Below are positions 5,832 to 53,152 of a stretch of 64,000 nt of DNA, one piece after another (the stretch's first letter is position 1; the number at the start of each line of letters is the position of its first letter). The notes beneath the pieces are model-generated. The model had not been told where the DNA came from, did not search any database, and worked only from the letters and a program-made list of their open reading frames with translations. The translations under genes were made by a program, and so were the position numbers. Origin of the DNA: Candidatus Fimenecus sp. (lineage in GTDB: Bacteria; Bacillota; Clostridia; Oscillospirales; Acutalibacteraceae); NCBI GenBank assembly GCA_045594885.1, contig JAZNZJ010000026.1:3754-67753 (forward strand), read 5' to 3'.

Positions 5832-5848
5832 CTACTGAAAAACTTAAA

Positions 5849-6619: not shown

Positions 6620-7954
6620 GTGGGTGATTTTTTGAAAAATTTTATATCTCTTATTCTTACCTTAATGATTTTTATGGGTATGTTTACAATAAGCTCAAGT
6701 GCCGCTTTCAATTCTTTATTAGAAACTGAGGCGGATATTGTTCTGCTTGTTAATTTAGACAGTGACACTGTTATATTTGACAAAAATGCCGACAAACGCA
6801 GTGCACCCGCATCATTGACTAAAATTGTAACCTGTATGGTTGTTCTTGAGAATTGTGAAGATTTGTCAACACCCCTTACCTGCACAAGAGAGAATATTGA
6901 AGGACTTTATCTTTTAAACCCCTCAACCGCAGCCATTCAAGTTGGCGACACACTCACAGTTGAACAGCTTCTTTACGGTCTTATGCTTCCGTCAGGTGCA
7001 GATGCCGCTAATATTCTTGCTGATTATATTGGCGGAACACGTGAAAACTTTGTTGTAATGATGAATGATTTTGTAAAATCTTTGGGCTGTGAGAATTCTA
7101 ATTTCATCAACGTTCACGGGCTTGACGGTGACGGCAGTGCATATACAACCGCAAACGACCTTTACAAAATAACAAAATATGCACTTCAAAATTCTACCTT
7201 TAAAGAAATCGTAAGCACTACGAAATATCAAGTACCAATAAAGAGTTACCCTTACTACAACACGAATAAAATGATGAATCCCGCATATAAAGACTATTAT
7301 AGCCCCTATATTTCAGGTGTTAAAACGGGTACTACCGACCTTGCGGGTCATTGTGTCGTTTCAACTGCCTCAAAAGACGGCTACAACTATTTACTTGTTG
7401 TGATGAATGCACCACAGTATGACATCGACAACGATGGTGTCGAAGAAAACGTTGCATTCACCGACAGCAAAAAAATCTATGAATGGGCATTTGATAATAT
7501 TGTGCTTACCAAGGTTACAACCACAACTGATGTTGTGACCGTTATTGACATTGAATACAACTGGAAAGTTGACCATTTAAGACTCTTGCCCGCAAAAGAG
7601 ATTTCTGCCTTTGTTCCTCTTGGCACAGAGTCAGGCAGTCTTGTAATAAGACCCATTGAGTCTGAAACTCCAAAAGTAGTAAAAGCACCTGTTAAAAAGG
7701 GTGATGTGTTAGGCAAAGCCGAAATTCTTTATGGTGAAGACGTTGTTGCAACAGTTGACCTTGTTGCCGCAGAAGATGTTGACCGTGATTTTCTTCTTTG
7801 GGTATTCAGCGGAATTAAAACAATTTTTTCATCAACAATTTTTAAAATTCTCTTTGCACTTTTCATTGTGCTTGTGATTATTTATATTATCCTCATTATC
7901 CGCAAAAACAGAATAAAATCCAAAAGAAAAAAGATTAAAATGATTAAAGGTTAA
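6620..7954 (+). CDS. D-alanyl-D-alanine carboxypeptidase (serine-type, PBP5/S11-like) with C-terminal TM anchor
   Basis: Signal-like N-terminus and SxxK motif ASLTK. C-terminal hydrophobic segment FKILFALFIVLVIIYIILII is followed by a basic tail. The GTG start is uncertain. Confidence 0.8.
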   Translation: MGDFLKNFISLILTLMIFMGMFTISSSAAFNSLLETEADIVLLVNLDSDTVIFDKNADKRSAPASLTKIVTCMVVLENCEDLSTPLTCTRENIEGLYLLNPSTAAIQVGDTLTVEQLLYGLMLPSGADAANILADYIGGTRENFVVMMNDFVKSLGCENSNFINVHGLDGDGSAYTTANDLYKITKYALQNSTFKEIVSTTKYQVPIKSYPYYNTNKMMNPAYKDYYSPYISGVKTGTTDLAGHCVVSTASKDGYNYLLVVMNAPQYDIDNDGVEENVAFTDSKKIYEWAFDNIVLTKVTTTTDVVTVIDIEYNWKVDHLRLLPAKEISAFVPLGTESGSLVIRPIESETPKVVKAPVKKGDVLGKAEILYGEDVVATVDLVAAEDVDRDFLLWVFSGIKTIFSSTIFKILFALFIVLVIIYIILIIRKNRIKSKRKKIKMIKG

Positions 7955-7979
7955 AATCTATAAGTTTGGAGGAGTTTTT

Positions 7980-38115: not shown

Positions 38116-38976
38116 ATGAAAAAATTGCAGTTAAAAATTAAAATGTTTTTATTAGCATTGCTTATTCTTACTCTCAGCGTTCTTATTGTTCTCTACGTGG
38201 CTTTTTGTCGTGATGGCAATTACAACTCGGTTGAAATTACACAACGTACAGAAACCACCACACAAGCACCTGAAGCAACGACGGACGATGTTTCTGCACC
38301 TGAAGAAGATTTAACCGTAACCGAGGCAGAAAGCACCACTATACCTGAAGAAAGCACAACTCAACCTCTAGTTATATGGCAGAGCTATAAACCCGCAGAA
38401 AATCTTGCAACTGAAAATTGGGCTCTTACTTTAATCAATAAAGATTTTCCCCTTGATAAAACATACTCGCCCACACTTGCCCCTGTGATTGAAGGAAGTT
38501 CAATTACTGCCGACACCCGTGTTGCAGAAGAATTCAAAAAAATGTATGCGGACGCACAAACCGCAGGCTTTGTTCTCACACCATATTCAGGATATTGCAG
38601 TTATCAAAGACAGCAAACAAACTACAATAACAAGGTTCAAGCCTTTATTCTTCAAGGTATGGCCGAGGATGAAGCAAAACAGAATGCAGAAAAAAGAATT
38701 GAACCTGCAGGTTGTAGCGAAAACGGTGCGGGACTCAGTATTGACATAATAAGTGCAAGTGCAGGTTTTGCGTCAACAAAAGAATATGAGTGGCTTACAC
38801 AAAATGCTCATAATTATGGTTTTATTCTTCGATACCCCAGTGATAAGACCGAAATAACGGGAATGATTTATCAGCCATGGCACTGGCGTTATGTGGGCGT
38901 TGAAGCCGCAACTGAAATGAAATCAGGCAATTTATGTTTAGAAGAATATCTTAAAGTTACTAAAACTGAAAATTAA
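38116..38976 (+). CDS. D-alanyl-D-alanine carboxypeptidase, VanY/M15B family
   Basis: N-terminal TM segment, SGYCSYQRQ, SENGAGLSIDI, YGFILRYP...QPWHWRYVG motifs. Confidence 0.8.
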   Translation: MKKLQLKIKMFLLALLILTLSVLIVLYVAFCRDGNYNSVEITQRTETTTQAPEATTDDVSAPEEDLTVTEAESTTIPEESTTQPLVIWQSYKPAENLATENWALTLINKDFPLDKTYSPTLAPVIEGSSITADTRVAEEFKKMYADAQTAGFVLTPYSGYCSYQRQQTNYNNKVQAFILQGMAEDEAKQNAEKRIEPAGCSENGAGLSIDIISASAGFASTKEYEWLTQNAHNYGFILRYPSDKTEITGMIYQPWHWRYVGVEAATEMKSGNLCLEEYLKVTKTEN

Positions 38977-38990
38977 TTATCAAATATTTA

Positions 38991-39019
38991 ATGCGGAGTT
39001 AATAGCTCCGCATTTTTTG
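38991..39019 (+). terminator. Intrinsic terminator after the vanY-like gene
   Basis: atgcggag-ttaatag-ctccgcat followed by tttttgc. Confidence 0.7.
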
Positions 39020-39020
39020 C

Positions 39021-39050
39021 ATTTAAAAAGCCACTCACGAGGAGTGGCTT
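39021..39050 (-). terminator. Intrinsic terminator closing the 39.07-52.65 kb operon
   Basis: 9-bp stem aagccactc-acgag-gagtggctt, followed on the minus RNA by uuuuaaau. Confidence 0.65.
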
Positions 39051-39070
39051 TAATTATTTAAAATATTAGA

Positions 39071-40699
39071 TTAGATTGCGGGCTGTTCTTCCTCTTCTTC
39101 ATCATCCTTCTTGCGTTTAAAGAGGATTATGATGAATAAGAACAAGCTAAGCACCATTGTCAGACCTAATGTAACGGGGTTTTGGAACAAATCTGCAAGA
39201 GTATCTGGGTTAGGTATAATCGGTACGTCCTTTTTAGGTCCGCCGATTGTAATAATAACACCGTCGTTATCTTTATCTTTGTCACCACCGTCATAATCAT
39301 CTATATGACCATCGCCGTCTTTATCAGGGTCCTTATCATCAGGAATTCCGTCATTATCGTCATCGGGGTCGGTAACATCGGGGTCGCCGTCACCATCAGT
39401 ATCGACGTCGGGGTGGTCGGGGTCATCCTTATCGGGAATACCGTCGCCATCATCGTCGTCATCTTTGTCATCGGGGATTCCGTCATCATCCTTGTCATCA
39501 TCGGGGATTATTTCGCCATCGGGAAGCCCATCGTTGTCATCATCGTCATCTTCACTGTCGAGAATACCATCACCGTCTGTGTCACGTTCGGGACTATCTG
39601 GGTCGTCCTTATCAAGAATGCCGTCATTGTCATCGTCGTCATCCTCATTGTCGGGGATGCCGTCGTTGTCGTCATCGTCATCTACCTTGTCAGGAGTGCC
39701 GTCACCGTCTGTATCACGGTCGGGATGGTCAGGGTCATCCTTATCGGGAATGCCGTCATTGTCGTCATCGTCATCCTTATCATCGGGGATGCCGTCATTG
39801 TCGTCATCGTCGTCATTTCTGTCAGGAATACCGTCATCGTCTGTATCTCGATTAGGGTGGTCAGGGTCATCCTCATCCGGAATTCCATCGCCGTCATCAT
39901 CGGGGTCAGGAATTATATCATCATTGTCACCATCGGGGTCAACATCTCCGGGATTATCAGGGTCACCGGGGTCAGTTTTGTCCGGGTCTTGGTCCGGAAT
40001 TCCATTACCGTCGTTATCTACAATGTGAAAATCAAGATAAATAACCTTTGTTCCCTCAGGAACAAGAACTACCTGTGTGCCGTCCGATGCCTCTGTAAGA
40101 GTAATTTCATCAACTTCATCTGTAAATTCAACAACAAATGCTGTGTTTGAAAGCACTTTGTCATCTTTTGCGATTGTAACGAAATGCTTTCCTTCAGAAA
40201 TGTCTTCAACCTTGTAACGACCGTCATCATCAGTAGTAGCAGTTGCACTACCAAAATCAAAGCTCATAGTAGCATCTTTAAGCTCTTTGTCGCCTAAATA
40301 CACGGTACCTTCCATATCAGCCTTTTGGCAATCATCATTGGGGTCGTCCGAACATTTTTTAAAGGTAACATCAACATTAGTATCAGTAACAATATCACTG
40401 ATTTTCAGATTTCCGTTGACATATTCATCTGTAACATCAACACCATTTACAGTAATGGAATCTAAATGATAACCATTTTCTGTAAAGACGCCAAGGTCGA
40501 TTTCACCAAATCTGTCAATTTTAAATTGTGTTCCGTCAGCACATATTTTGCCGTTAACAAGAACAAAACCACCGTCGTTGTAATTGATTGTTACATTGTG
40601 TTCAAATGGCACAACTGTACCAATCTGTGTTGCAAAACTGGGAATAGCCGTAGCTATGAGCATTGCAATAACAACAACAATACTAAATACTTTTTTCAA
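39071..40699 (-). CDS. Membrane-anchored surface protein with CarboxypepD_reg-like domain and thrombospondin type-3-like Ca-binding Asp repeats
   Basis: TTG start 7 nt after GGAGGTG. Signal peptide ...AIPSFA. Segment GTVYLGDKELKDATMSF...TTDDDGRYKVEDISEGKHFVTI. About 250 aa of DxDxDGxPDxxD repeats. C-terminal TM segment LGLTMVLSLFLFIIILF, then KRKKDDEEEEE. Confidence 0.75.
   Translation of the reverse strand: MKKVFSIVVVIAMLIATAIPSFATQIGTVVPFEHNVTINYNDGGFVLVNGKICADGTQFKIDRFGEIDLGVFTENGYHLDSITVNGVDVTDEYVNGNLKISDIVTDTNVDVTFKKCSDDPNDDCQKADMEGTVYLGDKELKDATMSFDFGSATATTDDDGRYKVEDISEGKHFVTIAKDDKVLSNTAFVVEFTDEVDEITLTEASDGTQVVLVPEGTKVIYLDFHIVDNDGNGIPDQDPDKTDPGDPDNPGDVDPDGDNDDIIPDPDDDGDGIPDEDDPDHPNRDTDDDGIPDRNDDDDDNDGIPDDKDDDDDNDGIPDKDDPDHPDRDTDGDGTPDKVDDDDDNDGIPDNEDDDDDNDGILDKDDPDSPERDTDGDGILDSEDDDDDNDGLPDGEIIPDDDKDDDGIPDDKDDDDDGDGIPDKDDPDHPDVDTDGDGDPDVTDPDDDNDGIPDDKDPDKDGDGHIDDYDGGDKDKDNDGVIITIGGPKKDVPIIPNPDTLADLFQNPVTLGLTMVLSLFLFIIILFKRKKDDEEEEEQPAI
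39260..40018 (-). repeat. Tandem coding repeats (four ~44-aa units, each built of shorter DDDDDNDGIPD modules)
   Basis: Units of the form DPDHP(N/D)RDTD(D/G)DG.PD...DDDDDNDGIPD..DDDDDNDGI.DKD, visible as GAT/GAC-rich near-repeats in the DNA. Confidence 0.8.
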
Positions 40700-40748
40700 T
40701 GAAATCCACCTCCTTGAAAAATTTTTACCAAATCAACACGGAGGTCGA

Positions 40749-41285
40749 TTACGGAGTAGTTTTACCGCTATCGTAAACCACTGTGAATGTAAGTGTATCT
40801 CTGTATTCGCCAACCGGTTTACCTTCAAAGCTTGTAATTGCTACTTTAACATTTTTGCCGTCTATTACATTGGGGGCTGTTGTATTTGCAGGGTTAACTG
40901 CATCGAAAGTAACTGCACCGCCACCTGTAATAGTATAATCTAATTCTTCAGCTGTGCCGTCAGCTTTCATTTTGCCACTACCTGAAACAGAAATTGTAAG
41001 AGATGCACCAATAAGAAGCTGTGACTCAACTTTATAAGTCATATCGTGTTCATCTTTATTGTTCCAAGGAATACTTGTATCCGCCGGAATTGTAACAGTA
41101 TATGACCAGTCTGTGTTCTCATCAAAAGTTGTATAAACATCTGCTGTACCTGTCTGAGCACCTGTTGAAGCATCAGGAGTTGGTTCAGCCTGATTAATTT
41201 GTGTTTCGGTCGCTGCCGCAAATGCAGGAACCGCAATAGCCATCATCATTACGATAGCCATTAATAAAGCAATAATTTTTTTCAT
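40749..41285 (-). CDS. Small secreted beta-rich protein, tandem paralog P1 of 11
   Basis: Signal peptide MKKIIALLMAIVMMMAIAVPAFA. Family motifs YTVTIPADTSIPW, SQL..G, LDYTI, YRDTLTFTVVY. Confidence 0.8.
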   Translation of the reverse strand: MKKIIALLMAIVMMMAIAVPAFAAATETQINQAEPTPDASTGAQTGTADVYTTFDENTDWSYTVTIPADTSIPWNNKDEHDMTYKVESQLLIGASLTISVSGSGKMKADGTAEELDYTITGGGAVTFDAVNPANTTAPNVIDGKNVKVAITSFEGKPVGEYRDTLTFTVVYDSGKTTP

Positions 41286-41324
41286 AATAATTTACTCTCC
41301 TTTAATGGAGCAGTCAAATCTTAA

Positions 41325-41801
41325 TTAAACGATTTCTGCTGTGAATGTAAGAGTATCTGTGTAAGCATCAACAGGAACTGTTAACCAAGCTGCATTTGAT
41401 GTATCAATAGTAACTGTATCAACTTTGTCAACTAACACTTCTTCAGTTGCTGTGAATGTAGCATCTGTGATTGTATAAGCAAGAGTAGCTGTTGAGCCAT
41501 CCTTTTTCATAAGATATTCATCATCTGCGTCAGCAACAGAAACCTTTACAAAATCATCTGTTGCAAGCTGACTGTTGATTGTGTATTCAATTTTTGTTGT
41601 AGTTGCTTCCCAATAAATTTCCTGAGTTGCAGGAATTGAAACTGTGTACCAAGTTGGGTCACTGCCGTCTTCTTTTACTGTCTTTGTGTTAATAATTGTA
41701 TCGTTACCTGCGTTTGAACCGCCTTGAACTGCTGCAAAAGCAGGAACTGCGATAGCCATCATCATTACGATAGCCATTACTAATGCTAAAATCTTTTTCA
41801 T
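41325..41801 (-). CDS. Small secreted beta-rich protein, tandem paralog P2
   Basis: MKKILALVMAIVMMMAIAVPAFA; YTVSIPATQEIYW; LAYTI; AAW...YTDTLTFTAEIV. Confidence 0.8.
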   Translation of the reverse strand: MKKILALVMAIVMMMAIAVPAFAAVQGGSNAGNDTIINTKTVKEDGSDPTWYTVSIPATQEIYWEATTTKIEYTINSQLATDDFVKVSVADADDEYLMKKDGSTATLAYTITDATFTATEEVLVDKVDTVTIDTSNAAWLTVPVDAYTDTLTFTAEIV

Positions 41802-41822
41802 AACGTTTTCTCCTTAAAAATT

Positions 41823-42302
41823 TTATACCAGCTCTGCTGTGAATGTTAATGTACCACTGTAATTATCAATTGAAGCTTCTTCCCAATTTGAAGTGGGAAT
41901 GTTCACCTTTACCGCTGATGTTTCGGGTGACGATGCTAAAATTACTGATTGTTTAGTGGTATATGTTGTATCACTTAAACCATATTTAAGTGTTGCAGTT
42001 TTTGCTTGATTTTTCATAGTGAAACCATCGGCTGATGATACAACAATGCTAACAAGCTTTCCTGTCTGAAGTTGACAGAATATTGAATATTCTACATTGG
42101 TGTATTCCTTTCCCCAAGGAATTTCAACTTCTGCGGGAATGGTCACTGTAAATGAGCCTTCGCCTTTATCTTTTATGCCGTCAACAACAACTTTAGTTGT
42201 TGTTCCTGCAGTACCATTATCATATTGAGTATTGGCAAATGCAGGAATACAAACTGCAAACATCATAACAAGAGCAAGAGCTAATGAAAGTACTTTTTTC
42301 AT
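41823..42302 (-). CDS. Small secreted beta-rich protein, tandem paralog P3 (divergent signal peptide)
   Basis: MKKVLSLALALVMMFAVCIPAFA; FTVTIPAEVEIPW; LKYGL; NW...YSGTLTFTAELV. Confidence 0.8.
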   Translation of the reverse strand: MKKVLSLALALVMMFAVCIPAFANTQYDNGTAGTTTKVVVDGIKDKGEGSFTVTIPAEVEIPWGKEYTNVEYSIFCQLQTGKLVSIVVSSADGFTMKNQAKTATLKYGLSDTTYTTKQSVILASSPETSAVKVNIPTSNWEEASIDNYSGTLTFTAELV

Positions 42303-42326
42303 ATTAAGCCCTCATTTTTAAATCAA

Positions 42327-42794
42327 TTATGCACTAACTACTTCTGCTGTGAAAGAAATCTGTCCTTCATAAACATCATAAGGAACTGCGTCCCAAGCAC
42401 CTGGTGTGATTGTAATGTCAAATTTATGTTCTTCATTTGAAACAACTTCTTTTTCTGAAAGACCGTCTGTTTTGTCTGTTGCAGTAAATTCAATTGATTT
42501 ACCTGCAGCACTTGTCAAATCCTGTGATTTTGCAAGTGTAACCTGAACTTTTTTACCTGAAACGAGCTGACTTGTGATGAAATAAGATGCTTGACCGTTT
42601 GTGTTCCAAGTAAGATTAACTGAAGCAGGAATTGTAACTGACCATGTACCGTCACCAACACCTGATGTACCGTCAACGATAACAGTTGTATCACCTGCTT
42701 TTGTTGCACTATTTAATGAATTAGTTGCAAAAGCAGGAACTGCAATAGCCATCATCATTACGATAGCCATAACGAGTGCTAAAATCTTTTTCAT
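42327..42794 (-). CDS. Small secreted beta-rich protein, tandem paralog P4
   Basis: Start moved to ATG 42794, where the family signal peptide MKKILALVMAIVMMMAIAVPAFA begins and an SD AAAGGAGAT lies upstream. WSVTIPASVNLTW; YEGQISFTAEVV. Confidence 0.8.
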   Translation of the reverse strand: MKKILALVMAIVMMMAIAVPAFATNSLNSATKAGDTTVIVDGTSGVGDGTWSVTIPASVNLTWNTNGQASYFITSQLVSGKKVQVTLAKSQDLTSAAGKSIEFTATDKTDGLSEKEVVSNEEHKFDITITPGAWDAVPYDVYEGQISFTAEVVSA

Positions 42795-42828
42795 AATATT
42801 AATCTCCTTTATCTCTATTGGAATCAAC

Positions 42829-43326
42829 TTAAACAGCTGAGTAAACAACTGTATATGTTACTGTACCCTGATAAACTGCAGGAACTGCCTGGTCGTACTG
42901 TTCTTGTGCAATACTGATTGTAATATCTGTGTCAGGACCTTCGTTATTGTTGATTTCGTTAAATGTTTTTGCGTCAACACCGCCTGCGAGTGTGTATTCA
43001 AGTGAATAGCCTACAGCAACATCACTTGTCATTACAGCACCATTATCAGCAGCAACTGAAACTTTAAGACTTGCGCCGATAGGAAGCTGTGATGTAACTG
43101 AATAGTTAGCATCTTTAGTAGCTGTATCATCCCAAGCAAATGTGAATGATGCGGGATAAGTAACTGTGTAAGTAGCATCTGCATCTGATGTTGTTGTAGC
43201 AACTACTACCTGACCTTTTTGAGAACCGTCAGCTTCTTTTGCTGTATTTTGGTCAATAGCAAAAGCGGGAACTGCAATAGCCATCATCATTACGATAGCC
43301 ATAACGAGTGCTAAAATCTTTTTCAT
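42829..43326 (-). CDS. Small secreted beta-rich protein, tandem paralog P5
   Basis: Same signal peptide; YTVTYPASFTFAW; LEYTL; YQGTVTYTVVY. Confidence 0.8.
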   Translation of the reverse strand: MKKILALVMAIVMMMAIAVPAFAIDQNTAKEADGSQKGQVVVATTTSDADATYTVTYPASFTFAWDDTATKDANYSVTSQLPIGASLKVSVAADNGAVMTSDVAVGYSLEYTLAGGVDAKTFNEINNNEGPDTDITISIAQEQYDQAVPAVYQGTVTYTVVYSAV

Positions 43327-43338
43327 AATATTTTCTCC

Positions 43339-43824
43339 TTATTTCGTCTTTATTGAAACTGTAAATGTTACAAGGTCTGCATAATTATCAACTGAAACCT
43401 GATTCCAATGCTCCGGAAGAATAAGCACATATAAAACGTCCTCAACTTTGGTTTCCGGAATAACAGATTCAGTTAAACTGAAATTACCGTTAAGAAGTGC
43501 ATATGGAATTGCACCATTTACACCGTCTTTTAAAAGGTAATTATTCTGACCTTTTACATCGAAGTCTAAAACTTTTCCTGTTTCAAGCTGACACTCAACT
43601 GTGAATGGAATATAAGTATTTGTTGCACCCCAGTAAATTTCAACCTTTGCAGGAATTGTAACTATATAGTATGCGGCTTCTGTGCCATTCTCTTTTGTTG
43701 TAAGAGTGCAAATGTCTGTATTTGCCACATTATTGTTGTTATCAATTGTATTAGTGGCAAATGACGAAAAGCACATACTAATCAATAAAAGTAAAATTAT
43801 TACGAGAGTTAAAATTCTTTTCAT
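43339..43824 (-). CDS. Small secreted beta-rich protein, tandem paralog P6 (divergent signal peptide)
   Basis: MKRILTLVIILLLLISMCFSSFA; YIVTIPAKVEIYW; IPYALL; HW...YADLVTFTVSI. Confidence 0.78.
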   Translation of the reverse strand: MKRILTLVIILLLLISMCFSSFATNTIDNNNNVANTDICTLTTKENGTEAAYYIVTIPAKVEIYWGATNTYIPFTVECQLETGKVLDFDVKGQNNYLLKDGVNGAIPYALLNGNFSLTESVIPETKVEDVLYVLILPEHWNQVSVDNYADLVTFTVSIKTK

Positions 43825-43850
43825 AATCTTACCCCCATCAATTAAGCGAT

Positions 43851-44333
43851 TTAAACCTTATCGCTAAGAGTAGCTGTAAATGTAACATGACTTGAATATT
43901 CAGCGATTGTCTTATTCCAGTCAGCAACTGTGAATGTAAGAGTTTCTGTTTCGTCTGAAACTTCAACATAATCAACATCAACGTCACCTGATACTGTGTA
44001 TTCAAGTGTATCAGCAGTACCATTAGCTGTCATTGTACCTGTAACACCATGTGATGTCTGGTCTGCAACTGTAACATTGAGTTCCTTGCCAACTGCAAGT
44101 TGTGTTATTACTGTGTATGTTACATCATATGTTGGCGCATTCCAAGGAATAACGATTTCTGCAGGATATGTAACTGTATAAGTACCTGCACCAACTGCTG
44201 TCGTATCTGTCGTAACAAGAACATTATCATTCTGATTTGCTCCGCCAACTTCTGAAAAGCTACCTGCGAATGCGGGAACTGCAATAGCCATCATCATTAC
44301 GATAGCCATAACGAGTGCTAAAATCTTTTTCAT
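43851..44333 (-). CDS. Small secreted beta-rich protein, tandem paralog P7
   Basis: Family signal peptide; YTVTYPAEIVIPW; LEYTV; DW...YSSHVTFTATL. Confidence 0.8.
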   Translation of the reverse strand: MKKILALVMAIVMMMAIAVPAFAGSFSEVGGANQNDNVLVTTDTTAVGAGTYTVTYPAEIVIPWNAPTYDVTYTVITQLAVGKELNVTVADQTSHGVTGTMTANGTADTLEYTVSGDVDVDYVEVSDETETLTFTVADWNKTIAEYSSHVTFTATLSDKV

Positions 44334-44368
44334 AATATTTTCTCCTAAATGAAAATTAATTTTAAAAA

Positions 44369-44860
44369 TTAAATGTCAACGATTTCTGATGTGAATGTAA
44401 GAATATCTTTGTATTCGTCGAATGATGCTCCATCCCAATTTGGTTTTGAAACATCAACACTAAAGCTGTATGTTGCGTCAGTTTCAGTAGCTAAAACAAC
44501 GGGTCTTGTTGTTTTTGCAGTTGTTTCGCCGCTAAGTGCGTATGCAAGTTTTGCACCGCCTGCATTAACCATTTCAAAACCATTTGCATCTTTGTCAATG
44601 ATTGCAACAGAAACGCATTTACCTGTCTTAAGCTGTGATGTAATTGAATACTCGAAGCTTGTGTTTTCATCGCCCCATGTAAGAGCCATTGTTGCAGGAT
44701 AAGTAACTGTATAAGTACCTTCGCCAGCAACACCAGAAATATCTGTAACAACTTCTGCGTCGCCTGATTCGTTACCAACTTCAAGAGTTGCTGCAAATGA
44801 AGGAACTGCAATAGCCATCATCATTACGATAGCCATAACGAGTGCTAAAATCTTTTTCAT
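44369..44860 (-). CDS. Small secreted beta-rich protein, tandem paralog P8
   Basis: Family signal peptide (VPSFA); YTVTYPATMALTW; LAYAL; NW...YKDILTFTSEIV. Confidence 0.8.
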   Translation of the reverse strand: MKKILALVMAIVMMMAIAVPSFAATLEVGNESGDAEVVTDISGVAGEGTYTVTYPATMALTWGDENTSFEYSITSQLKTGKCVSVAIIDKDANGFEMVNAGGAKLAYALSGETTAKTTRPVVLATETDATYSFSVDVSKPNWDGASFDEYKDILTFTSEIVDI

Positions 44861-44892
44861 AATATTTATCTCCTTTTTAAATTAACTAACAA

Positions 44893-45396
44893 TTAAACGA
44901 TAGCTGCTGAGAATGTAAGAATATCTGAATATGTACCAACGATTGCTCTGTTCCAAGCATCTGCTGTGATGTCAACAGAAATAACTTTTTCTTCTTTTGG
45001 ATAAGTAACTGTTGCAAAGTTTACTGCTGTGTCACCTGTAAGTGCAAAATTGAGGTCAAGATTAACATTTTCTTCAGGAGAATATGTCATAACATTGTCT
45101 GAACTTGCAACTGCAACGTCAAGTGTTTTGCCATAGAGAAGGTGTGCTTCAACGAAATAGCTCATTGGAGTTGCCTCTGAGCCCCAATAAATTGTTGTAT
45201 CTGCAGGAATTTCAACTAAATACCAGTCGCCGTCGCCATCTGGAACACCGTCACCATTTTCATCTTTCTGTGTGCTTGTAGTGATTGTAACGTCACCTGA
45301 CTGACCGGGTTTTACGTTAAGGTCAGCTGCGAATGCGGGAACTGCGATTGCCATCATCATTACGATAGCCATAACGAGTGCTAAAATCTTTTTCAT
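44893..45396 (-). CDS. Small secreted beta-rich protein, tandem paralog P9
   Basis: Family signal peptide; YLVEIPADTTIYW; LNFAL; AW...YSDILTFSAAIV. Confidence 0.8.
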   Translation of the reverse strand: MKKILALVMAIVMMMAIAVPAFAADLNVKPGQSGDVTITTSTQKDENGDGVPDGDGDWYLVEIPADTTIYWGSEATPMSYFVEAHLLYGKTLDVAVASSDNVMTYSPEENVNLDLNFALTGDTAVNFATVTYPKEEKVISVDITADAWNRAIVGTYSDILTFSAAIV

Positions 45397-45435
45397 AATA
45401 TTTATCTCCTTTAATTAACTTATAGTAAACAGCAA

Positions 45436-45918
45436 TTATACTGTAACGATTGATGATGTATAAGTAAGGATGTCGCTGTACTCTTCAACAACTGCTGTGT
45501 TCCATGTAAGGTCATCAACAACAACTTTGAGTTCTACATTAGCTGCAGGATAAACATTAGCAGTAGCTGTTGTGTAATTTACAGTACCATCAAGTGCGTA
45601 AGCGAGTTCATAAGCACCATCTGCAGTTTTCATAGCACCATTACCTGCAACTGTAACATTTACTCTGTTGTTTCTTGTAAGGTGAGCTTCAACTTTGTAA
45701 GAAACGTCTGTTTCAGCTTCGCCCCAAGGAATAACTGTGTCTGCAGGAATTGTAACGATGTACTGTTCTGCATCATTACCATTTTTGTCTTTTGTATCTG
45801 TGCTGATAAGAACATCACCAGCCTCTGAAGGCTTTACTGTAAGGTCAGCTGCGAATGCGGGAACACAGATAGCGAGCATCATAACGAGTGCAAGTGCGAT
45901 TGAAATTACTTTTTTCAT
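45436..45918 (-). CDS. Small secreted beta-rich protein, tandem paralog P10 (P3-like signal peptide)
   Basis: MKKVISIALALVMMLAICVPAFA; YIVTIPADTVIPW; LAYAL; TW...YSDILTYTSSIV. Confidence 0.8.
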   Translation of the reverse strand: MKKVISIALALVMMLAICVPAFAADLTVKPSEAGDVLISTDTKDKNGNDAEQYIVTIPADTVIPWGEAETDVSYKVEAHLTRNNRVNVTVAGNGAMKTADGAYELAYALDGTVNYTTATANVYPAANVELKVVVDDLTWNTAVVEEYSDILTYTSSIVTV

Positions 45919-45955
45919 AACTGTTTTCTCCTTTATATCAAGATTAATTTACTAT

Positions 45956-46417
45956 TTAAACAGCATCAATATATTCAATAGTGAATGTAAGAATATCACT
46001 ATGTCTGCCTGATGCCGCCTGTAACCATTGTGCTTCTGTAACACTTACAGAAAGAGGAATTGCCTTGCCGTATTCACCGGGGAAGAAAGAGATGTCCTCT
46101 GCTCCCAAAAGAGCATATTCAATGGTACGCTTTGAATCGCTTGAATTTACAAGCTTATAGTCGTTTTCGGAACTAACCGAAACCTTAACTTTTTTGGCAG
46201 GTTCAATAAGCATTTTTTCTGCTTTTACCTCACCGATTCCCATAGAAGCTGTCATCCACGGGATTTCCACATCCGCTGGGAACGATAACACATAGTCAAC
46301 ATCTGCTTTTGTGGAAATTTCCATTGATTGTTCCAACGCAAAAGTTGGAACTATGCAAAGCAAGAGCATAACGAGTGCAAGACCTGCGGATAAAGCTTTT
46401 TTCATATAAAACATCAT
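45956..46417 (-). CDS. Small secreted beta-rich protein, tandem paralog P11 (shortest, divergent)
   Basis: (MMFY)MKKALSAGLALVMLLLCIVPTFA; YVLSFPADVEIPW; IEYALL; QW...HSDILTFTIEYI. The start could be 46417, 46414 or 46405. Confidence 0.75.
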   Translation of the reverse strand: MMFYMKKALSAGLALVMLLLCIVPTFALEQSMEISTKADVDYVLSFPADVEIPWMTASMGIGEVKAEKMLIEPAKKVKVSVSSENDYKLVNSSDSKRTIEYALLGAEDISFFPGEYGKAIPLSVSVTEAQWLQAASGRHSDILTFTIEYIDAV

Positions 46418-46428
46418 CTCCTCCCTTA

Positions 46429-49400
46429 TTATGTACCGTCGTCATAAATGACGGTATAAGTCAATGTCGTTCTGTACTCACCAAGTGCCGCTGCGTCCCA
46501 ATCCTCTTGACTGATTTTAACCTCAGGCTCATCCGTGGGCTTGGTAGCGGACGAAATATTTGTTGTAAATACAGTTTCTTTGAAATTGTATGCGGTATAT
46601 TCAATAGCATTATCGCCATTCATTAACTTACCTATGTTAGTTGCAGTATTGAAATTACCTGTATTATCTGCAACGTCAACGGTAAGAGTACCACCATTAA
46701 GAGATGCATTTTCTATTTCATAAGAAACACTCTTGTTTGCTGTGTCGTCCCAATCAACTGCCAAATCAGCAGGGATTGAAACAGTATAATAAATTGGGTC
46801 GGAACCATTTGTTGAAACGAACATAACGGGAATTTCAACTGTTGATACAGGTTCAAGTGTTGCCATATCAACACCGTCAGTAATCAAAGCACTGTCAAAT
46901 GCCATAAGAGTTACTGTACCTTCATATTGGTTACCCGTAGGAACTTTCTTTGCCTTTGCTTCATCAACTGAGATTTCAGGGGCAAAAGCACTTGTTACTC
47001 CGTTTGCATAATCACCAAGTTTAGTGTAAGTAACCGTTCCGTCAGTTCCCGTTGAACCGTTTACATTAAAGTATCCGAAATTATAAGCAGTTCCGCCTGT
47101 CTGTGTCCACTTGTAGTCAGTAACAAGGTAAACACTTACGGTTCTGTTAAGTCTTGCCGCAACATAGGTCAGATTTGCATCTGCCGTATCAAGATAAAGC
47201 GGGTGTTCATCGGAGTTTGTAAGAACTACCTGTTCACCGTCTGCTTTACCAAGGTCCGCCGTCGGCAAGAGAAGTGCAAGTTGAACGTAATCGTAGTTAA
47301 GCTCGTCAACCAAAGCATAACGTCTTAAGAATGCTTCGTACTGACCTAAACAATACTCAATTTCATTGAGTGTAGGTGTATCAAGTACGGTTCTTGCCGT
47401 AATCTTTGCACTGACGTCTGTATATGCGTTTTCGAGTCGGCGTTCATAGGTAATAATACCGCCCTCAACCGCAGCACCGGCATTTGGTGTAATTGCCGTT
47501 GAGTTATCGTGGATAGCCTCTGCCGCATCATACATATTCATATAAGCCGCCGCAACGTCGGTATCATCACTTAAAAGCTTTTTACCGAAAACACTAATAT
47601 CGGCATACATATCTGTGTAATATCCGAGAGCATTTACGGTGTTACCGTCAGCATCTGTAGTAGTTCCTGCGTACTTAACAGTTCTCAACTCGTTGTCGGA
47701 GTCTTCAGTATCAGGAATTCTGTCGGCATCATCGTCAGTATGTGAACTCAAACCGTAAATCCTTATAATGTTATTCTTAAAGGTTTCAACGTTCGCTATA
47801 ATACCGTCTTTTTCAACACCCTCGTGGACATCTGCGTCACCGCCAATCAAAACTGCACGCCGTGCCGCATTATAGGCATTTGTCAATCTGTTGAAATCAT
47901 AGTCTGTAATTGAGGCTCTGTCATCCATGCTCAAACGGTGATAACCTTTTTCGTACATATCTATAACTGATTGAGCTTCTTCAATACTTGTAAATCCAAG
48001 AGCTGTTAAATAGTCATCTTTATGAGTTTCGTACAAGTCTAACAAGGTTTCTTCGGCTGTGGAATATTCTTTCGCCGTTTCTGAAATCGCACCCAATGCC
48101 GTCAGCAGATTTTCTGCTGCAGTACCGTCGGCTGTTGCCGTATAAAGCGGTCGCCATTGTTCTTTTTGAATCTCATTAGTATAATCCCTGTAAAGGTTTC
48201 TATATTTTGCTTCAAGCAATGTTTCATAACAGTATTTTACTTCCGGAATTGTTTTCTGATAATCAGAAAGAGCCAAATAAGCATCTATGCACCTATCAAA
48301 AGAAGCTTTAAATTCTGCCTCTGTTGCATATGGGTCGATAGTTGAAACCATCTTTTCGAAGTTACTTGAGTCAACCGTTTTAACTCCGAAGTATTCGTCC
48401 ATATTCTTAACAGTAATACCGTTGTCTTGATTAAGTTCGCCATTACAGTCTGTATTATTACTTACACGGTTTGTACAAGCAGGGTCATAAGTAAAGCCAA
48501 GACCGTCAATTGTTAAATCTTTGCCTACGTTAGCACCTGTATAATCCCAGAATGTAATTTTTGCTTGTTTGATTTTATAACCATCATCAAGAAGATTATC
48601 AAAAATATAATAATCCATTCTTAATGTACCTGGTTTAGGTACACGGAAGTTTGAAAGAGGAATACGAATAAATCCTTTATATCCTTCCAGTTTGTTAAGT
48701 GACGACGGTGCAATTGAACAAAGAGCTTTTGCATTATCATCGCCGAACCAAGCGGAGTTGTCAAGTGCTGAAGATGAAAGGTTTTGAGCTTCCCATTCAC
48801 CATTTTCATCAAGCTGATAAATAACAGGTGTATCACTGAGGGTACCACCACAGAAATAACAGTTAACGTCGTTACCGCTTGAATCCTGAAGAATGAACTT
48901 AATATTCATATTCACTGCTTCAACATTGGTAAAGTCAACATACATAACAAAGGAGTTAGGAATTACACCTGCACCATATCTTGTTACATCTTCTGCGTCA
49001 GTTCCGTTTGTACTATCTGTCTTAACAGCGAGCGCACTCAAATCAAGTCCGGGAAGATTTCCCCAAGTATCTGCCTCTGCACCAAGATAGGTAGTCGAAA
49101 GTGTTGCAAGCTTTACATCACTCGACGAATTAAGGTCGCCGTTGATATTTATTGTTGCACCAAGCGAATCAGCAAAGCCCTTATTTGTAATCTGTGCATC
49201 CATTCTTGAGAAATATGTTCCCGCACTGTTATCAAGAGTTTCACCCGTTGGTCTGAAATCAGCCGGTGACCAACCAATGGCTTCACCAATCGCTGCAGAT
49301 TGGTTAATTGTTTTACTTGAAACATATGTTGTAAAATTACCCGTACTGTTTACGTCAGTAGCTTTACTGTCTTCATATGCCGGGTAATCATCATAATACA

Positions 49401-51753
49401 TATCGGACATCTGACCAAAAGTATAATTTTTCTCAAAGTCATTGAAAGGAATGTACGGATATGCACCAATTGACTGACCTGTTCTTACCTCTTCACCCAT
49501 AACCAAGTCATAAAGCTCAAGGAACTTTTCTTCTGATTCCTTACCCAACAACTCATAGTGAGAAAGGTTGAAGGTTTCATAAATTGCCATTAACTGTTTA
49601 AGAGTACCCTGCAATTCTTCGTCTGTATGACTTGCAAATTCTGCAGTAGGAAGTCCCTCAACAGTATTTTCAAAATAGATAACCGCATTATAGTTTGACT
49701 CGGCATTTTCTGAATAAACATACTCAACAAACTCTTCTGCATCTTTATAACGATTGTAAGCATCGGTATGACCAAGAGCTTTTAGCTTCTCGATTGCCTG
49801 TGAAACCTTTTCAGCATCTGAAAGAGCTGAATCCTTAGCAATACCGAAACATTCAATATAATTAAGAATAATGTCGTCAACCAAATCCTTGGCTGTCAAG
49901 TCATTAAGTGAAGGAATTTCACCAAAGTACTGCATAATGTATTCTGCAACAGCCTTTGGAACCTGAACAGTTCTGTCGTAGAAGCCTGACATTTTTCTAC
50001 CAAGGTCCGCTGTACCACTACTATTAACAGTAGCACCTTCTTGTGGGAATTTAATTGCTGATGCATCTGTTACGTAACCCGCACTATCGAACGTACCACC
50101 TGTGTTTTTCTGACAGAACATAACCTGGTCAATGTAGAAAGATTTATGAACTGACTCTGCCGTCCACTCTGCAACCTGAACACCCGCTGAAACAAGGTCT
50201 TCAATCGCAGTAAGGGGGTCGTTAACTGTGAATGTTACTGAACCATCATCTGCATATGTTTCTGTGATATCGCCTTGAGGAGCTTTAAGAGTATTATTCT
50301 TTGTATTACCATTACCCCATGTTTCGCTTCTTTCATAGAGAATAATCACATCTGTTACACAAGTACCTGCAGGATTAATCTTAATTCCGTAACCGGATTG
50401 GCTCGCTGCATATGGTTCTGCTGTTTTTGTTGTGCCGTCCGGCATAATAAGTTTATCATTTGCTGTAACACTTTCAGAAAGAACATATGCTGCGAGGTTG
50501 TCTGCATTACCCTCAGGAGTATCGCAACCGCCCTTTGCCCAAGATTCCAAAGTTACCGAGCTTGTCATATATTGGTCTTCTTGTAAAATGAAATACTCAA
50601 TCGGAACACGAACAAAACCCTTATAACCTGAAAGATTTGTAAAATAACCATCAGTCATCGAAGTTGATTCCCAAAGGCCATCAGCATTCTGAATATAAAT
50701 ACCTTCACTAACTGTTCCGGCATTTACACCAGCTACAGACACAGTTGAAAAAGTTTTACCATAATGAGAATATTCGTTTTTCTTTGTGTCATCTCTATAA
50801 TGTTCAAAAGATTTCTCGTTAGCCGATAAAGTAAATGCAAATTTATTAATTTGAGCACGGCTTAAATCAACATAGAACCAAACCTCTTCAGCATTTGAAA
50901 AGTCGTAGTGGTTACGGCTCCAAGTAGTTGTCATGATATATGGGGTTCCGTTGTATGCATTAGCTATCCATAAACGATAACCTGCACCGCCATCATAACC
51001 CATACCAGCCATCTGACCATTAACGTCAATCAATTCTGCACTTTGACGTTCAGAGTAGTCCGGACTCGTTGAACCACCATCCGATTGATTGGAATTATCA
51101 ATCTTCGCATTACCTTTCTGTTCAAAAAGCAACATTTCACGAACAACCCAACTCTCATTAGGTGAGAAGTCATCGTTAATAATGTAGTAAGGAGTTTTTG
51201 TGAGAAGTGTATGAATTTTATCTGACACCCAACCGTCGCTGTCAACCGCCTGAATTGATACGTCATAACTCGCATCAACTTCATAATCTTCAAGGCTTTC
51301 AAATGCACCCGGCCAGTAATAGATTGAGTTAGGATAGTTGTTACCCTCTGTGTTATCTACAGAAAAAGTACCTACACGACCATCTGCATTATTCAAATTA
51401 AAGTTTTCTGACCAGATTTCAGTACGAGTACCGTCATCTTCAAGCTTTGTAATGGTCATAACATAACTTGCAATTGATTTCTTTGTAGGTGCTGCCTCTG
51501 TGTAAGTGTTCCACGTTGCCGCCGCATTTGCGTGTGGGAATGCTACACTCAAACTACCGTCAGCATTAAGAGTTGCGATAAAGTTAGTATTGACCGCAGC
51601 CTCATTACTACCGTCACCCCAATAAGGTGCGGGGTCATATGAGCCCTCTCCGACTGCCCCGACCATTAACACGGGGATTGAAGAAACAATCATTATTAAA
51701 CTCATTAAAATCGAGAGTGCTTTTTTAGTGATATTCTTCTTTTTCATTCTCAT
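46429..51753 (-). CDS. Giant (1774 aa) secreted multi-module protein whose C-terminal ~150 aa carry the paralog-family domain (putative adhesin/tip component)
   Basis: Signal peptide MRMKKKNITKKALSILMSLIMIVSSIPVLMVGA. Two duplicated beta-sandwich-like modules ending LSGYKGFVRVPIEYF and LEGYKGFIRIPLSNF. Helical linker segments between modules. C-terminus YYTVSIPADLAVDW...IEYTA...DW...YRTTLTYTVIY. Confidence 0.8.
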   Translation of the reverse strand: MRMKKKNITKKALSILMSLIMIVSSIPVLMVGAVGEGSYDPAPYWGDGSNEAAVNTNFIATLNADGSLSVAFPHANAAATWNTYTEAAPTKKSIASYVMTITKLEDDGTRTEIWSENFNLNNADGRVGTFSVDNTEGNNYPNSIYYWPGAFESLEDYEVDASYDVSIQAVDSDGWVSDKIHTLLTKTPYYIINDDFSPNESWVVREMLLFEQKGNAKIDNSNQSDGGSTSPDYSERQSAELIDVNGQMAGMGYDGGAGYRLWIANAYNGTPYIMTTTWSRNHYDFSNAEEVWFYVDLSRAQINKFAFTLSANEKSFEHYRDDTKKNEYSHYGKTFSTVSVAGVNAGTVSEGIYIQNADGLWESTSMTDGYFTNLSGYKGFVRVPIEYFILQEDQYMTSSVTLESWAKGGCDTPEGNADNLAAYVLSESVTANDKLIMPDGTTKTAEPYAASQSGYGIKINPAGTCVTDVIILYERSETWGNGNTKNNTLKAPQGDITETYADDGSVTFTVNDPLTAIEDLVSAGVQVAEWTAESVHKSFYIDQVMFCQKNTGGTFDSAGYVTDASAIKFPQEGATVNSSGTADLGRKMSGFYDRTVQVPKAVAEYIMQYFGEIPSLNDLTAKDLVDDIILNYIECFGIAKDSALSDAEKVSQAIEKLKALGHTDAYNRYKDAEEFVEYVYSENAESNYNAVIYFENTVEGLPTAEFASHTDEELQGTLKQLMAIYETFNLSHYELLGKESEEKFLELYDLVMGEEVRTGQSIGAYPYIPFNDFEKNYTFGQMSDMYYDDYPAYEDSKATDVNSTGNFTTYVSSKTINQSAAIGEAIGWSPADFRPTGETLDNSAGTYFSRMDAQITNKGFADSLGATININGDLNSSSDVKLATLSTTYLGAEADTWGNLPGLDLSALAVKTDSTNGTDAEDVTRYGAGVIPNSFVMYVDFTNVEAVNMNIKFILQDSSGNDVNCYFCGGTLSDTPVIYQLDENGEWEAQNLSSSALDNSAWFGDDNAKALCSIAPSSLNKLEGYKGFIRIPLSNFRVPKPGTLRMDYYIFDNLLDDGYKIKQAKITFWDYTGANVGKDLTIDGLGFTYDPACTNRVSNNTDCNGELNQDNGITVKNMDEYFGVKTVDSSNFEKMVSTIDPYATEAEFKASFDRCIDAYLALSDYQKTIPEVKYCYETLLEAKYRNLYRDYTNEIQKEQWRPLYTATADGTAAENLLTALGAISETAKEYSTAEETLLDLYETHKDDYLTALGFTSIEEAQSVIDMYEKGYHRLSMDDRASITDYDFNRLTNAYNAARRAVLIGGDADVHEGVEKDGIIANVETFKNNIIRIYGLSSHTDDDADRIPDTEDSDNELRTVKYAGTTTDADGNTVNALGYYTDMYADISVFGKKLLSDDTDVAAAYMNMYDAAEAIHDNSTAITPNAGAAVEGGIITYERRLENAYTDVSAKITARTVLDTPTLNEIEYCLGQYEAFLRRYALVDELNYDYVQLALLLPTADLGKADGEQVVLTNSDEHPLYLDTADANLTYVAARLNRTVSVYLVTDYKWTQTGGTAYNFGYFNVNGSTGTDGTVTYTKLGDYANGVTSAFAPEISVDEAKAKKVPTGNQYEGTVTLMAFDSALITDGVDMATLEPVSTVEIPVMFVSTNGSDPIYYTVSIPADLAVDWDDTANKSVSYEIENASLNGGTLTVDVADNTGNFNTATNIGKLMNGDNAIEYTAYNFKETVFTTNISSATKPTDEPEVKISQEDWDAAALGEYRTTLTYTVIYDDGT

Positions 51754-51794
51754 CTTCCTTTCTTCAAAAGGTATCTATAAAATGAACGGGAATT

Positions 51795-52646
51795 TTATTC
51801 CGCCTCTGCTTCGCTTACCTTAATCTTTGTTGCAACAACCATATTGTTAAGCTTTGTTCTCTGTTGGTCAAATGAATACGGCTGTTGCATTACAACTGCA
51901 TCATATTCACCAACATCAAGTGTTCTCGTAATTGAGAACTTTGAAATTGAATAACCGGGTTGAACAAGCCCCGATTTATAAATCATTTCGTCTGCATCAT
52001 CAATCTTCTTGTTACCGTTTTTATCAAGATAGATTGTGAATTCCATAAAGCAGACACCTTCATTCTTTTTATGGTTTGTAAGAATTACGTTCTGCTCTTT
52101 CTGATTTGCCTTGAAATTCATTTCGGGAATACCGACAATTGTTACATTTTTGTTTGATGTATCAATTTTTGAAGGTAGGTCAAGCTTACCCTCACCAATT
52201 TCGGCATCCGTATCAAGAATTAATGGTGCTGTTGTAGTAGTTGTTTCAGGCTCAGCACCTGTTTTTACAAGATATGCTGTTCCAAGAACCAAAGCCACAA
52301 GTAAAAGCAAACCAAGTAAAGTCCAAAGAATAATTGCACCGATATTATCTTTCTTAACCGCTATAAATGAGCCCGTTTCAAGCTCTATGTAACCAATGGT
52401 CTTATATCTTGAGCCCGATGTTGCTTTATAAACGGTTTCTTCAATTCCGTCAACTTCAATTGTGCCCGCTTCGTCCTTACCGTATTTAAGCTGACCTACA
52501 ACACGAATACCCCCATCAGGATAAAGTGCTTTCATTTCTTTGACGGTGTAATAACCAACCTCAAAGCCGGTATCTTTATTATAGTATGACTCTGTATAGT
52601 CATTTCCTGTTTTAATAATGAATTGTGCCAAAATAAGTTCCTCCAA
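51795..52646 (-). CDS. Bitopic membrane protein, first gene of the operon (N-in, central TM, Thr-rich linker, ~150-aa outside domain)
   Basis: No signal peptide. TM segment AIILWTLLGLLLLVALVLGTAYLV is followed by EPETTTTTAP. The track start TTG 52646 overlaps GGAGG. TTG 52631 (8 nt after GGAGG) is an alternative start. The first in-frame ATG is codon 38. Confidence 0.65.
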   Translation of the reverse strand: MEELILAQFIIKTGNDYTESYYNKDTGFEVGYYTVKEMKALYPDGGIRVVGQLKYGKDEAGTIEVDGIEETVYKATSGSRYKTIGYIELETGSFIAVKKDNIGAIILWTLLGLLLLVALVLGTAYLVKTGAEPETTTTTAPLILDTDAEIGEGKLDLPSKIDTSNKNVTIVGIPEMNFKANQKEQNVILTNHKKNEGVCFMEFTIYLDKNGNKKIDDADEMIYKSGLVQPGYSISKFSITRTLDVGEYDAVVMQQPYSFDQQRTKLNNMVVATKIKVSEAEAE

Positions 52647-52705
52647 TAACGCACATCTTAAAATTAAAGATAGTTATAGATATAGATTTACAATTTAACA
52701 TTATT

Positions 52706-52734
52706 ATTTTAATACCATTTTTTTCAGTTGTCAA
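52706..52734 (-). promoter_or_regulatory. Candidate SigA promoter of the surface-protein operon
   Basis: Minus strand reads TTGACA (52734-52729), 17-nt spacer, TAAAAT (52711-52706). A second TTGACA at 52792-52787 has a weaker -10. Confidence 0.35.
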
Positions 52735-52954
52735 CACTTTTTATTGTATAATTTTATTAGTTTTTTTAAATATTTCGACATGTTTTTGTCAATCTACTAT
52801 AAATTATATCTAAATTATGAACACTAACGATTAAAATTGTTCAATAAACTCATTGTTCAGTATTTTTTTGACTAAAAACAGCCTTATAGACGTTTTATAA
52901 CTCAACCTCTCAACAAATTGGGAGTTGTAGAATTGATTTGTATGTACTGTTTAT

Positions 52955-53090: not shown

Positions 53091-53116
53091 AAAAAAGCGA
53101 GAGTTTCCTCTCGCTT
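53091..53116 (-). terminator. Intrinsic terminator after the SPFH/NfeD operon
   Basis: gcgagag-tttcc-tctcgc, followed on the minus RNA by uuuuuuguu. Confidence 0.7.
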
Positions 53117-53152
53117 TGATTGTTATGACGATTAAAACCGCCCATTGTTAAA

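Follow-up and report, generated by a model that had tools for sequence, protein, structure and literature searches.

Concerted homogenization of untranslated regions (UTRs) and signal-peptide regions within tandem families of secreted proteins is known from the precursors of conotoxins and of amphibian antimicrobial peptides. The tandem SSSGP-1 genes of the Hessian fly likewise combine a conserved 5′ and signal-peptide region with diversified mature regions, and homogenization has been proposed as the conserving force (PMC2955719). Among bacteria, recombination maintains a segment comprising promoter and leader on the diverse mature proteins of the Borrelia burgdorferi erp genes (ospE/ospF/elp), whose alleles are mosaic (PMC10016077), and the vsp and vpma clusters of Mycoplasma conserve the 5′ UTR and signal-peptide region while the rest of each gene differs (PMC2268961). 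The lpl genes in nuSa-alpha of Staphylococcus aureus form a Gram-positive chromosomal tandem array of secreted or surface paralogs with strain-variable copy number (PMC4470592). Here, we compare with these systems a locus in 64,000 nucleotides (nt) of Candidatus Fimenecus sp. (assembly GCA_045594885.1, contig JAZNZJ010000026.1, positions 3,754 to 67,753; hereafter the window). It is a tandem array of 11 co-oriented paralogous genes, P1 to P11 (40749-46405, minus strand), five of which carry the same 65-nt leader block at their start, with P1 and P2 carrying diverged copies. We consider it highly probable that the leaders are kept alike by leader-restricted ectopic gene conversion, and that rare leader-to-leader crossover changes the copy number of the array (9 to 11).

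The likeness to the Borrelia erp genes lies in a shared leader maintained by recombination ahead of diverse mature parts. The erp products, however, are lipobox lipoproteins encoded at allelic sites on multiple cp32 prophage plasmids, and their conserved part includes promoter and operator, whereas the array is a chromosomal tandem operon with signal peptides of the type I signal peptidase (SPase-I) type (AFA, cleaved before A), in which only the segment from -6/-16 to about +60 is homogenized. No lipobox Cys occurs at the cleavage site of the array proteins, where VPAFA is followed by A, T, G, or I. The lpl paralogs differ both in being lipoproteins and in being similar over much of their length. 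As in the Mycoplasma vsp and vpma loci, the 5′ UTR and signal-peptide region is conserved across cassettes, but in Mycoplasma it contains the target sites of a neighboring tyrosine recombinase (Xer1/Mbr), which moves a single promoter from cassette to cassette by DNA inversion, while in the array neither a recombinase nor inverted copies were found and the genes form a single operon, all in one orientation. Families of the SSSGP type are eukaryotic and also conserve introns and 3′ UTRs, and strong positive selection following recent duplication has been inferred for their mature regions; the array duplicates, in contrast, are ancient, and the evidence for their conversion comes from setting orthologs against paralogs. 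The locus is evolutionarily akin to erp, vsp/vpma, and SSSGP, yet it lacks what defines the recombinase-driven and the lipoprotein systems. Leader-restricted conversion is a known kind of concerted evolution and not a new regulatory element or antigen-switching mechanism.

The leader block consists of the last 6 nt of the 5′ UTR and codons 1 to 19 of minus-strand genes (-6 to +59 relative to the ATG) and encodes MKKILALVMAIVMMMAIAVP. Its copies in the window are as follows:

42736-42800, minus strand: leader repeat of P4, exact copy
43268-43332, minus strand: leader repeat of P5, exact copy
44275-44339, minus strand: leader repeat of P7, exact copy
44802-44866, minus strand: leader repeat of P8, exact copy
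45338-45402, minus strand: leader repeat of P9, 2 mismatches, with GCA ATC replacing GCT ATT
41743-41807, minus strand: leader repeat of P2, 6/65 mismatches; the TTA GTA variant, which is the dominant leader of genome L007
41227-41291, minus strand: leader repeat of P1, 10/65 mismatches; core type in the window

Dinucleotide-preserving shuffles put the number of block matches expected by chance at 0. Start-to-start spacings are 532, 1007, 527, and 536 nt, the 1007-nt interval corresponding to an intervening gene with another leader; the leaders of P3, P10, P11, and P6 differ from the block at 23 to 28 of 65 positions. Exact tracts shared pairwise among P4, P5, P7, P8, and P9 are 53 to 75 nt long, run from -16/-6 to +47/+62, and end where paralog identity collapses: for pairs of mature regions, the longest shared exact word is at most 18 nt (median, 11), and mature regions are 18 to 41% identical in amino acids (aa). 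By codon-aware Nei-Gojobori comparison of the window paralogs, the proportion of differing synonymous sites (pS) in mature regions is 0.52 to 0.85, which is saturated, and that of nonsynonymous sites (pN) is approximately 0.5. Leader pS among the same five genes is 0.07 to 0.34 over 23 codons; for P4, P5, P7, and P8, it is 0 when only codons 1 to 19 are counted. A model's earlier reading of the letters and open reading frames (ORFs) of this DNA (here, the sequence-only reading) had described a repeat of this length at ~530-bp periodicity ahead of strongly diverged mature regions, and the exact matches, the shuffles, and the mature identities confirm it in every particular. The same holds for P1 and P2 as more diverged copies and for the different leaders of P3/P10, P6, and P11, and its claim that synonymous sites are conserved in the leader only stood once codon-aware distances were computed. 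Clustered regularly interspaced short palindromic repeats (CRISPR), miniature inverted-repeat transposable elements (MITEs), and repetitive extragenic palindromic (REP)-type repeats are ruled out as identities for the block, since each copy forms the in-frame beginning of a gene and codes for its signal peptide.

Homolog search and contig look-ups yielded eight further full arrays, plus fragments, which together with the window form the comparison set; the nearest named relatives are Candidatus Fimenecus sp. metagenome-assembled genomes (MAGs) from gut Clostridia, and all eight arrays have the same operon in the same neighborhood. Over 69 nt of leader in seven "core" orthogroups, leaders differed on average at 7.75 positions within a genome, at 10.95 between orthologs of different genomes, and at 11.33 between nonorthologs. 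When genome labels were shuffled within orthogroups, the within-genome similarity was reached in 0 of 5000 permutations, while the orthology signal was weak (101 of 5000). Leaders cluster by genome, not by ortholog. Five window genes share a TTA GCA CTC GTT variant; five L007 genes share TTA GCA TTA GTA and are identical over 60 nt; and other genome-specific leaders encode LAIA in L006, IIAIMMAL in three L002 genes, and AVAV in six L022 genes. Between L002 and its close relative L020, whose P11 proteins are 100% identical, a different leader has spread, so conversion has been recent. Mosaic leaders also occur. The P10 leader of L006, L010, and L021 joins a 5′ half of its own to a core-type 3′ half, and the P1 leader is of core type in the window, L007, L010, and L021 but of an "S type" (MKKxLSIALAxVMMFAICxPAFA) in L006, L020, L022, and L011, with mature P1 orthologous throughout.

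Near-identity that includes synonymous sites could instead reflect purifying selection on the nucleotides of the mRNA 5′ end, acting on a hairpin or on a protein or small RNA binding site for translational or secretion control, as the sequence-only reading had proposed. Identity does begin within the UTR, just after the ribosome-binding site (RBS; -6 to -16), and an 11-bp hairpin is predicted in codons 9 to 17 of the core leader, with a z-score of -2.2 in the P7 copy. Between genomes, however, the synonymous sites of orthologous leaders have diverged to the extent seen at neutral sites elsewhere: pooled leader pS is 0.35 to 0.57, against 0.41 to 0.55 in mature regions and 0.36 to 0.57 in the flanking genes Band_7, NfeD, M28, and VanY (window versus L007, in which 36 to 57% of synonymous sites differ). 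The leader nucleotides are therefore not specially constrained. Orthologous leaders vary in encoded residues too (LALV, LAIA, IAIM, AVAV). In four of five core copies, the predicted fold is no more stable than shuffled sequence (z-scores, -1.07 to +1.44), and the GCA ATC of P9 and of the dominant L007 leader weakens the hairpin without compensation; one arm of that hairpin is made up of invariant Met codons. The array gave no Rfam match, an E-value scan of 38 to 53.5 kb returning only two chance microRNA-like matches, both outside it, and P3, P10, and P11 manage in the same operon without the shared sequence. We consider selection on the mRNA 5′ end very unlikely, and the earlier proposal finds no support in ortholog leaders that change at the neutral rate. 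Between paralogs of one genome, on the other hand, pS is 0.12 to 0.43 in leaders versus 0.56 to 0.65 in mature regions. Leader nucleotides are thus free to change over time, yet do so in step within a genome, a pattern that marks concerted evolution rather than selection at individual sites.

A further reading of the contrast between leader and mature region is that the duplicates are young, with mature regions that diverged very fast under diversifying selection and a leader that is simply ancestral, as in conotoxins and the Hessian fly SSSGP genes. The pattern of conservation is indeed the one described for SSSGP genes (PMC2955719), and mature-region pN/pS is elevated, at approximately 0.5 compared to 0.04 to 0.15 in the flanking Band_7, NfeD, M28, and VanY genes (window versus L007). 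The synonymous sites of mature regions are nonetheless saturated between paralogs, as given above, and best-hit mapping of mature regions showed the nine arrays to be strictly collinear, with every cassette having a positional ortholog. Orthologous mature regions are 45 to 88% identical across the nine arrays, and paralogous ones 18 to 45%. The genomes that share this positional orthology have housekeeping genes differing at ~40 to 50% of synonymous sites, so the duplications predate the divergence of these genomes and long predate the leader identity. All 11 paralogs are ancient, and recent duplication has scarcely any probability left to it.

The sequence-only reading had taken the different leaders of P3/P10, P6, and P11 as marks of older subfamilies, which did not survive comparison: the mature parts of P3, P10, and P11 are no more diverged than the others. 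P9 and P10 are the closest mature pair (41 to 44%) despite their different leaders, and P3 and P8, at 40 to 45%, are as close as any pair. The noncore leaders of P3, P10, and P11 are ones that escaped conversion or were partly converted; they mark escape, not age. Of the nine full arrays, that of the window alone contains P6, which has relatives elsewhere at 65% (P0068 in L017) and 59% (P0118) identity. The 65%-identical relative (L017, 955-1437) lies between P3 and P2 and carries a core-type leader, and its presence at another array position hints at occasional cassette insertion or transposition. In the window, the P6 stop codon abuts the P5 RBS.

Collinearity bears equally on the idea, also raised in the sequence-only reading, that the array is a cassette-shuffling or surface-variation device whose leader repeats act as switching sites, comparable to Mycoplasma vsp/vpma/vsa loci or shufflons. 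What speaks for it is the combination of a conserved 5′ end and signal peptide with divergent mature parts, as in vpma and vsp (PMC2268961), together with the elevated mature pN/pS and the variable copy number, which across the nine arrays is 11, 10, 10, 10, 10, 9, 10, 9, and 10. The fast evolution of the mature regions is also consistent with surface exposure as such. Set against this, Pfam scans found no integrase, resolvase, or invertase among the operon genes and their neighbors (32.5 to 62.9 kb), and no recombinase occurs at the syntenic loci besides an unrelated Y1 transposase beside L022. No inverted repeats were found in 38900-52800 except a small palindrome at 51813-51852. All cassettes are complete, co-oriented, and equipped with their own RBS in one operon, and their order is collinear in nine arrays despite ~40 to 50% synonymous divergence. 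An invertible or shufflon-type system is ruled out, there being neither inverted repeats nor a recombinase, and programmed surface variation in general we regard as extremely unlikely; the earlier suggestion of shuffling is mostly unsupported. Where it had looked to changes of copy number and order among relatives, copy number does vary (9 to 11) and order is invariant. The arrays differ by gains and losses of single cassettes: P6 is extra in the window, P7 is absent from L011, and P10 is absent from L020. The view that the repeats are substrates for copy-number change was borne out, but on an evolutionary timescale and with order conserved, and not as shuffling.

The absence of P10 from L020 has left a footprint. 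The second gene of that array is chimeric: its upstream region and first ~35 nt match P10 of sister genomes, and from approximately +36 onward, it matches P9, both in the 3′ part of the leader and in the body, with the junction inside the shared GCTATCGTNATGATGATGGCA stretch. L002, a different MAG made with a different assembler, also lacks P10 and has the same P10/P9 chimera, and elsewhere differs from L020 by 8 to 26% in protein sequence. The chimera is what recombination between two direct leader repeats should yield, with exactly one cassette deleted. Short-read metagenome assembly might in principle have produced the identical blocks or the chimeric deletion as artifacts, given that all sources are MAGs or metagenome contigs and that two k-mer-based Logan contigs, L014 and L017, are interrupted within the leader. 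The same architecture recurs, though, in more than nine independent assemblies from different assemblers, cassette order is identical everywhere, the chimera is present in two MAGs that differ by the amount just given, and L014, from another sample, is collinear with the window at 96.7% identity over 3.7 kb. There is only the slightest chance that assembly artifacts explain these observations. One of the two explanations offered in the sequence-only reading, leader-anchored gene conversion or unequal recombination, is supported by the clustering of leaders by genome, by the mosaics, and by the chimera.

What the data show is concerted leaders, mosaics among them, and the footprint of a deletion; the process that we propose behind these is as follows. 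Recurrent short-tract ectopic gene conversion, through homologous recombination between co-oriented copies, would keep the leader near-identical in seven of the 11 old paralogs. Purifying selection on the signal peptide would hold leaders alike enough for recombination to start, and heteroduplex would form only within the leader because exact words common to two mature regions do not exceed 18 nt, so that the island of identity would be both self-sustaining and sharply bounded. The same repeats would occasionally resolve as a crossover, deleting or adding exactly one cassette. We infer that the mechanism is of the RecA type, that the tract boundary is self-limiting, and that leader identity itself probably has no adaptive role.

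Several observations weigh against gene conversion as the whole account. Homogenization varies among genomes: the window and L007 show it in extreme form, whereas every leader is distinct in L010, L020, L021, L022, and L012, with paralog leader pS up to 0.43, and part of the leader similarity is therefore amino acid constraint on the signal peptide. The CTC GTT and TTA GTA variants recur across genomes (in L021, P4 has the window-type CTC GTT and P9 the L007-type TTA GTA), so inter-strain exchange and recombination or a shared old polymorphism contributes too. The 11-bp hairpin that can form in codons 9 to 17 leaves room for a role at the RNA level. All data are metagenome assemblies, in which conversion is read from sequence and no event is seen directly, and no strain-level population data turned up. 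Look-up of the exact P8 protein gave no other contig, the exact window-type leader had 0 matches in Joint Genome Institute (JGI) metagenomes, and a degenerate leader scan gave no contig beyond one already in the set. Same-species material consists of three short Logan contigs only, 94 to 97% identical to the window, spanning P4 to P1 and collinear with it.

If leader-restricted conversion is the right explanation, the array would be a clean, well-controlled instance in nature of a bacterial gene-conversion island that limits itself, and one for which comparative data directly show where the tracts end, how fast neutral change proceeds between genomes, and what a crossover produces. There is also a practical consequence, as identical repeats of 53 to 75 nt break short-k assemblies and could mis-join or collapse cassettes in MAGs. 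Many MAGs probably contain under-assembled arrays of this family. Two Logan contigs start inside the leader repeat, with positions 1-40 of L014 and 1-38 of L017 lying in it (window positions 42765 and 42759).

The genes of the array and the surrounding operon, with its candidate signals, are as follows:

40749-41285, minus strand: P1
41325-41801, minus strand: P2
41823-42302, minus strand: P3
42327-42794, minus strand: P4
42829-43326, minus strand: P5
43339-43824, minus strand: P6, lower in GC content (33%) and with a leader and RBS of its own
43851-44333, minus strand: P7
44369-44860, minus strand: P8
44893-45396, minus strand: P9
45436-45918, minus strand: P10
45956-46405, minus strand: P11
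51795-52646, minus strand: 283-aa single-pass membrane protein, first gene of the operon, no family match
46429-51753, minus strand: 1774-aa secreted giant protein, whose C-terminal ~150 aa are the same domain as the array proteins
39071-40699, minus strand: 542-aa Asp-rich tandem-repeat protein, last gene of the operon, with a signal peptide and a C-terminal transmembrane anchor
52706-52734, minus strand: best promoter-like site upstream of the operon, a candidate (TTGACA-17-TAAAAT, 11/12)
39027-39051, strand not assigned: hairpin 20 nt past the stop of the Asp-rich gene; the scan called it on the plus strand, where its tail has no clean T-run

P1 to P11 encode products of 149 to 178 aa. Every product combines a signal peptide of the SPase-I type, with AFA at its end, and a mature domain that is a beta-sandwich. 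Within the array, 12 to 39 nt separate adjacent genes, and every gene has its own GGAG-type RBS. Reading along the minus strand, the order is the 283-aa membrane protein, the 1774-aa giant protein, P11 to P1, and the 542-aa Asp-rich protein, and we propose that the array genes are co-transcribed members of this conserved operon. The hairpin at 39027-39051 may be the operon terminator. Terminator-like hairpins with 10 to 11 pairs, including 5 G-C pairs, occur only at the operon boundaries (38990-39051 and 53094-53117), and three weak matches lie inside the array, in 44085-45706 (5 to 15 pairs, 3 G-C pairs each). The neighbors of the operon are housekeeping genes (NfeD, Band_7, VanY, M28 peptidase, IF-3). 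The P11 ORF could begin four codons upstream (45956-46417; MMFYMKK...), which makes its start codon ambiguous; the ATGATG start context of P11 is kept in all related genomes except L012.

Pfam and NCBIfam scans assigned no significant family to P1 to P11 or their operon partners, and a sequence-profile search of the Protein Data Bank (PDB) gave nothing below an E value of 0.19. Sub-threshold matches of the array proteins were to DUF4402 and SCPU. The family is nevertheless large, with 330 matches in 90% clusters and 2457 clusters at 50% identity (E ≤ 1e-3). An AlphaFold 2 (AF2) model of mature P8 built on an 89-sequence alignment is a beta-sandwich with a predicted local distance difference test (pLDDT) score of 95.2; it was used in place of a first model built on 12 sequences (pLDDT, 72.8). 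Nearly all top Foldseek matches of both models were chaperone-usher (CU) pilin domains (E values, 1.6e-3 to 0.1; TM-score, ≤0.53), and the top ~20 matches of the 89-sequence model were CU pilins at marginal scores (E values, 5e-3 to 0.07; TM-score, 0.3 to 0.53). They include PsaA, MyfA, PapA, FimF/G, CFA/I, and the CsuE pilin domain. We take the fold as a lead, and not a finding, that the array proteins may be a pilin-like surface module.

The likeness to CU pilins is tentative and confined to the fold of the mature domain, and the occurrence of that domain at the C-terminus of large adhesin-like proteins mirrors tip adhesins. CU systems differ in that the array operon has no Pfam matches to a chaperone or an usher. 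The C-termini of the array proteins (...LTFTAEIV and similar) carry no LPXTG motif or hydrophobic tail, and no sortase was matched by Pfam in the operon, which sets the array apart from sortase-assembled Gram-positive pilins. Two proteins of other organisms (P0238 and P0252) are ~460 aa long and combine BspA-type leucine-rich repeats with the family domain at the C-terminus, so the domain serves as a reusable C-terminal module on adhesin-like proteins.

The relatives and gene content suggest that the organism is one of the Gram-positive-type Clostridia. We speculate that the operon could encode a hitherto undescribed, sortase-independent, heteropolymeric surface fiber of Gram-positive gut Clostridia, in which 9 to 11 pilin-like subunits, joined for example by donor-strand complementation, would stand on the Asp-rich anchor and be capped by the giant protein as tip adhesin, though we hold such a fiber to be improbable. 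If it were true, the shared leader would ensure uniform co-secretion of the subunits, and conversion might be tolerated or favored for that reason. Whatever its assembly, a large unannotated family of small secreted pilin-like proteins in gut Clostridia, encoded beside a hypervariable giant adhesin-like protein, may merit work on structure and function.

The giant protein varies in a way of its own. That of the window (46429-51753) is 63% identical to its counterpart in L012 (3097-8478), the most distant genome by flanking genes, and 25 to 28% identical to those of seven others. Yet it is these seven genomes whose flanking genes are far closer to those of the window: between the window and L007, whose giant protein is encoded at 3428-8452, Band_7 is 98% and the 283-aa protein (p283) 92% identical. 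A single syntenic slot is thus occupied by deeply divergent allelic types, pointing to allele exchange or long-term balancing diversity.

At the other end of the operon, the Asp-rich anchor protein contains tandem DxDxDG-like repeats and ranges from 344 to 654 aa among the window and its L006 to L022 orthologs, which implies variation in repeat copy number. Internal repeats at 39330-39902 of its gene in the window are 75 to 81% identical to each other. The Y1 (IS200-like) transposase mentioned above lies just downstream of the operon in L022 (14739-15026); it is present in that one related genome only and is unrelated to the array.

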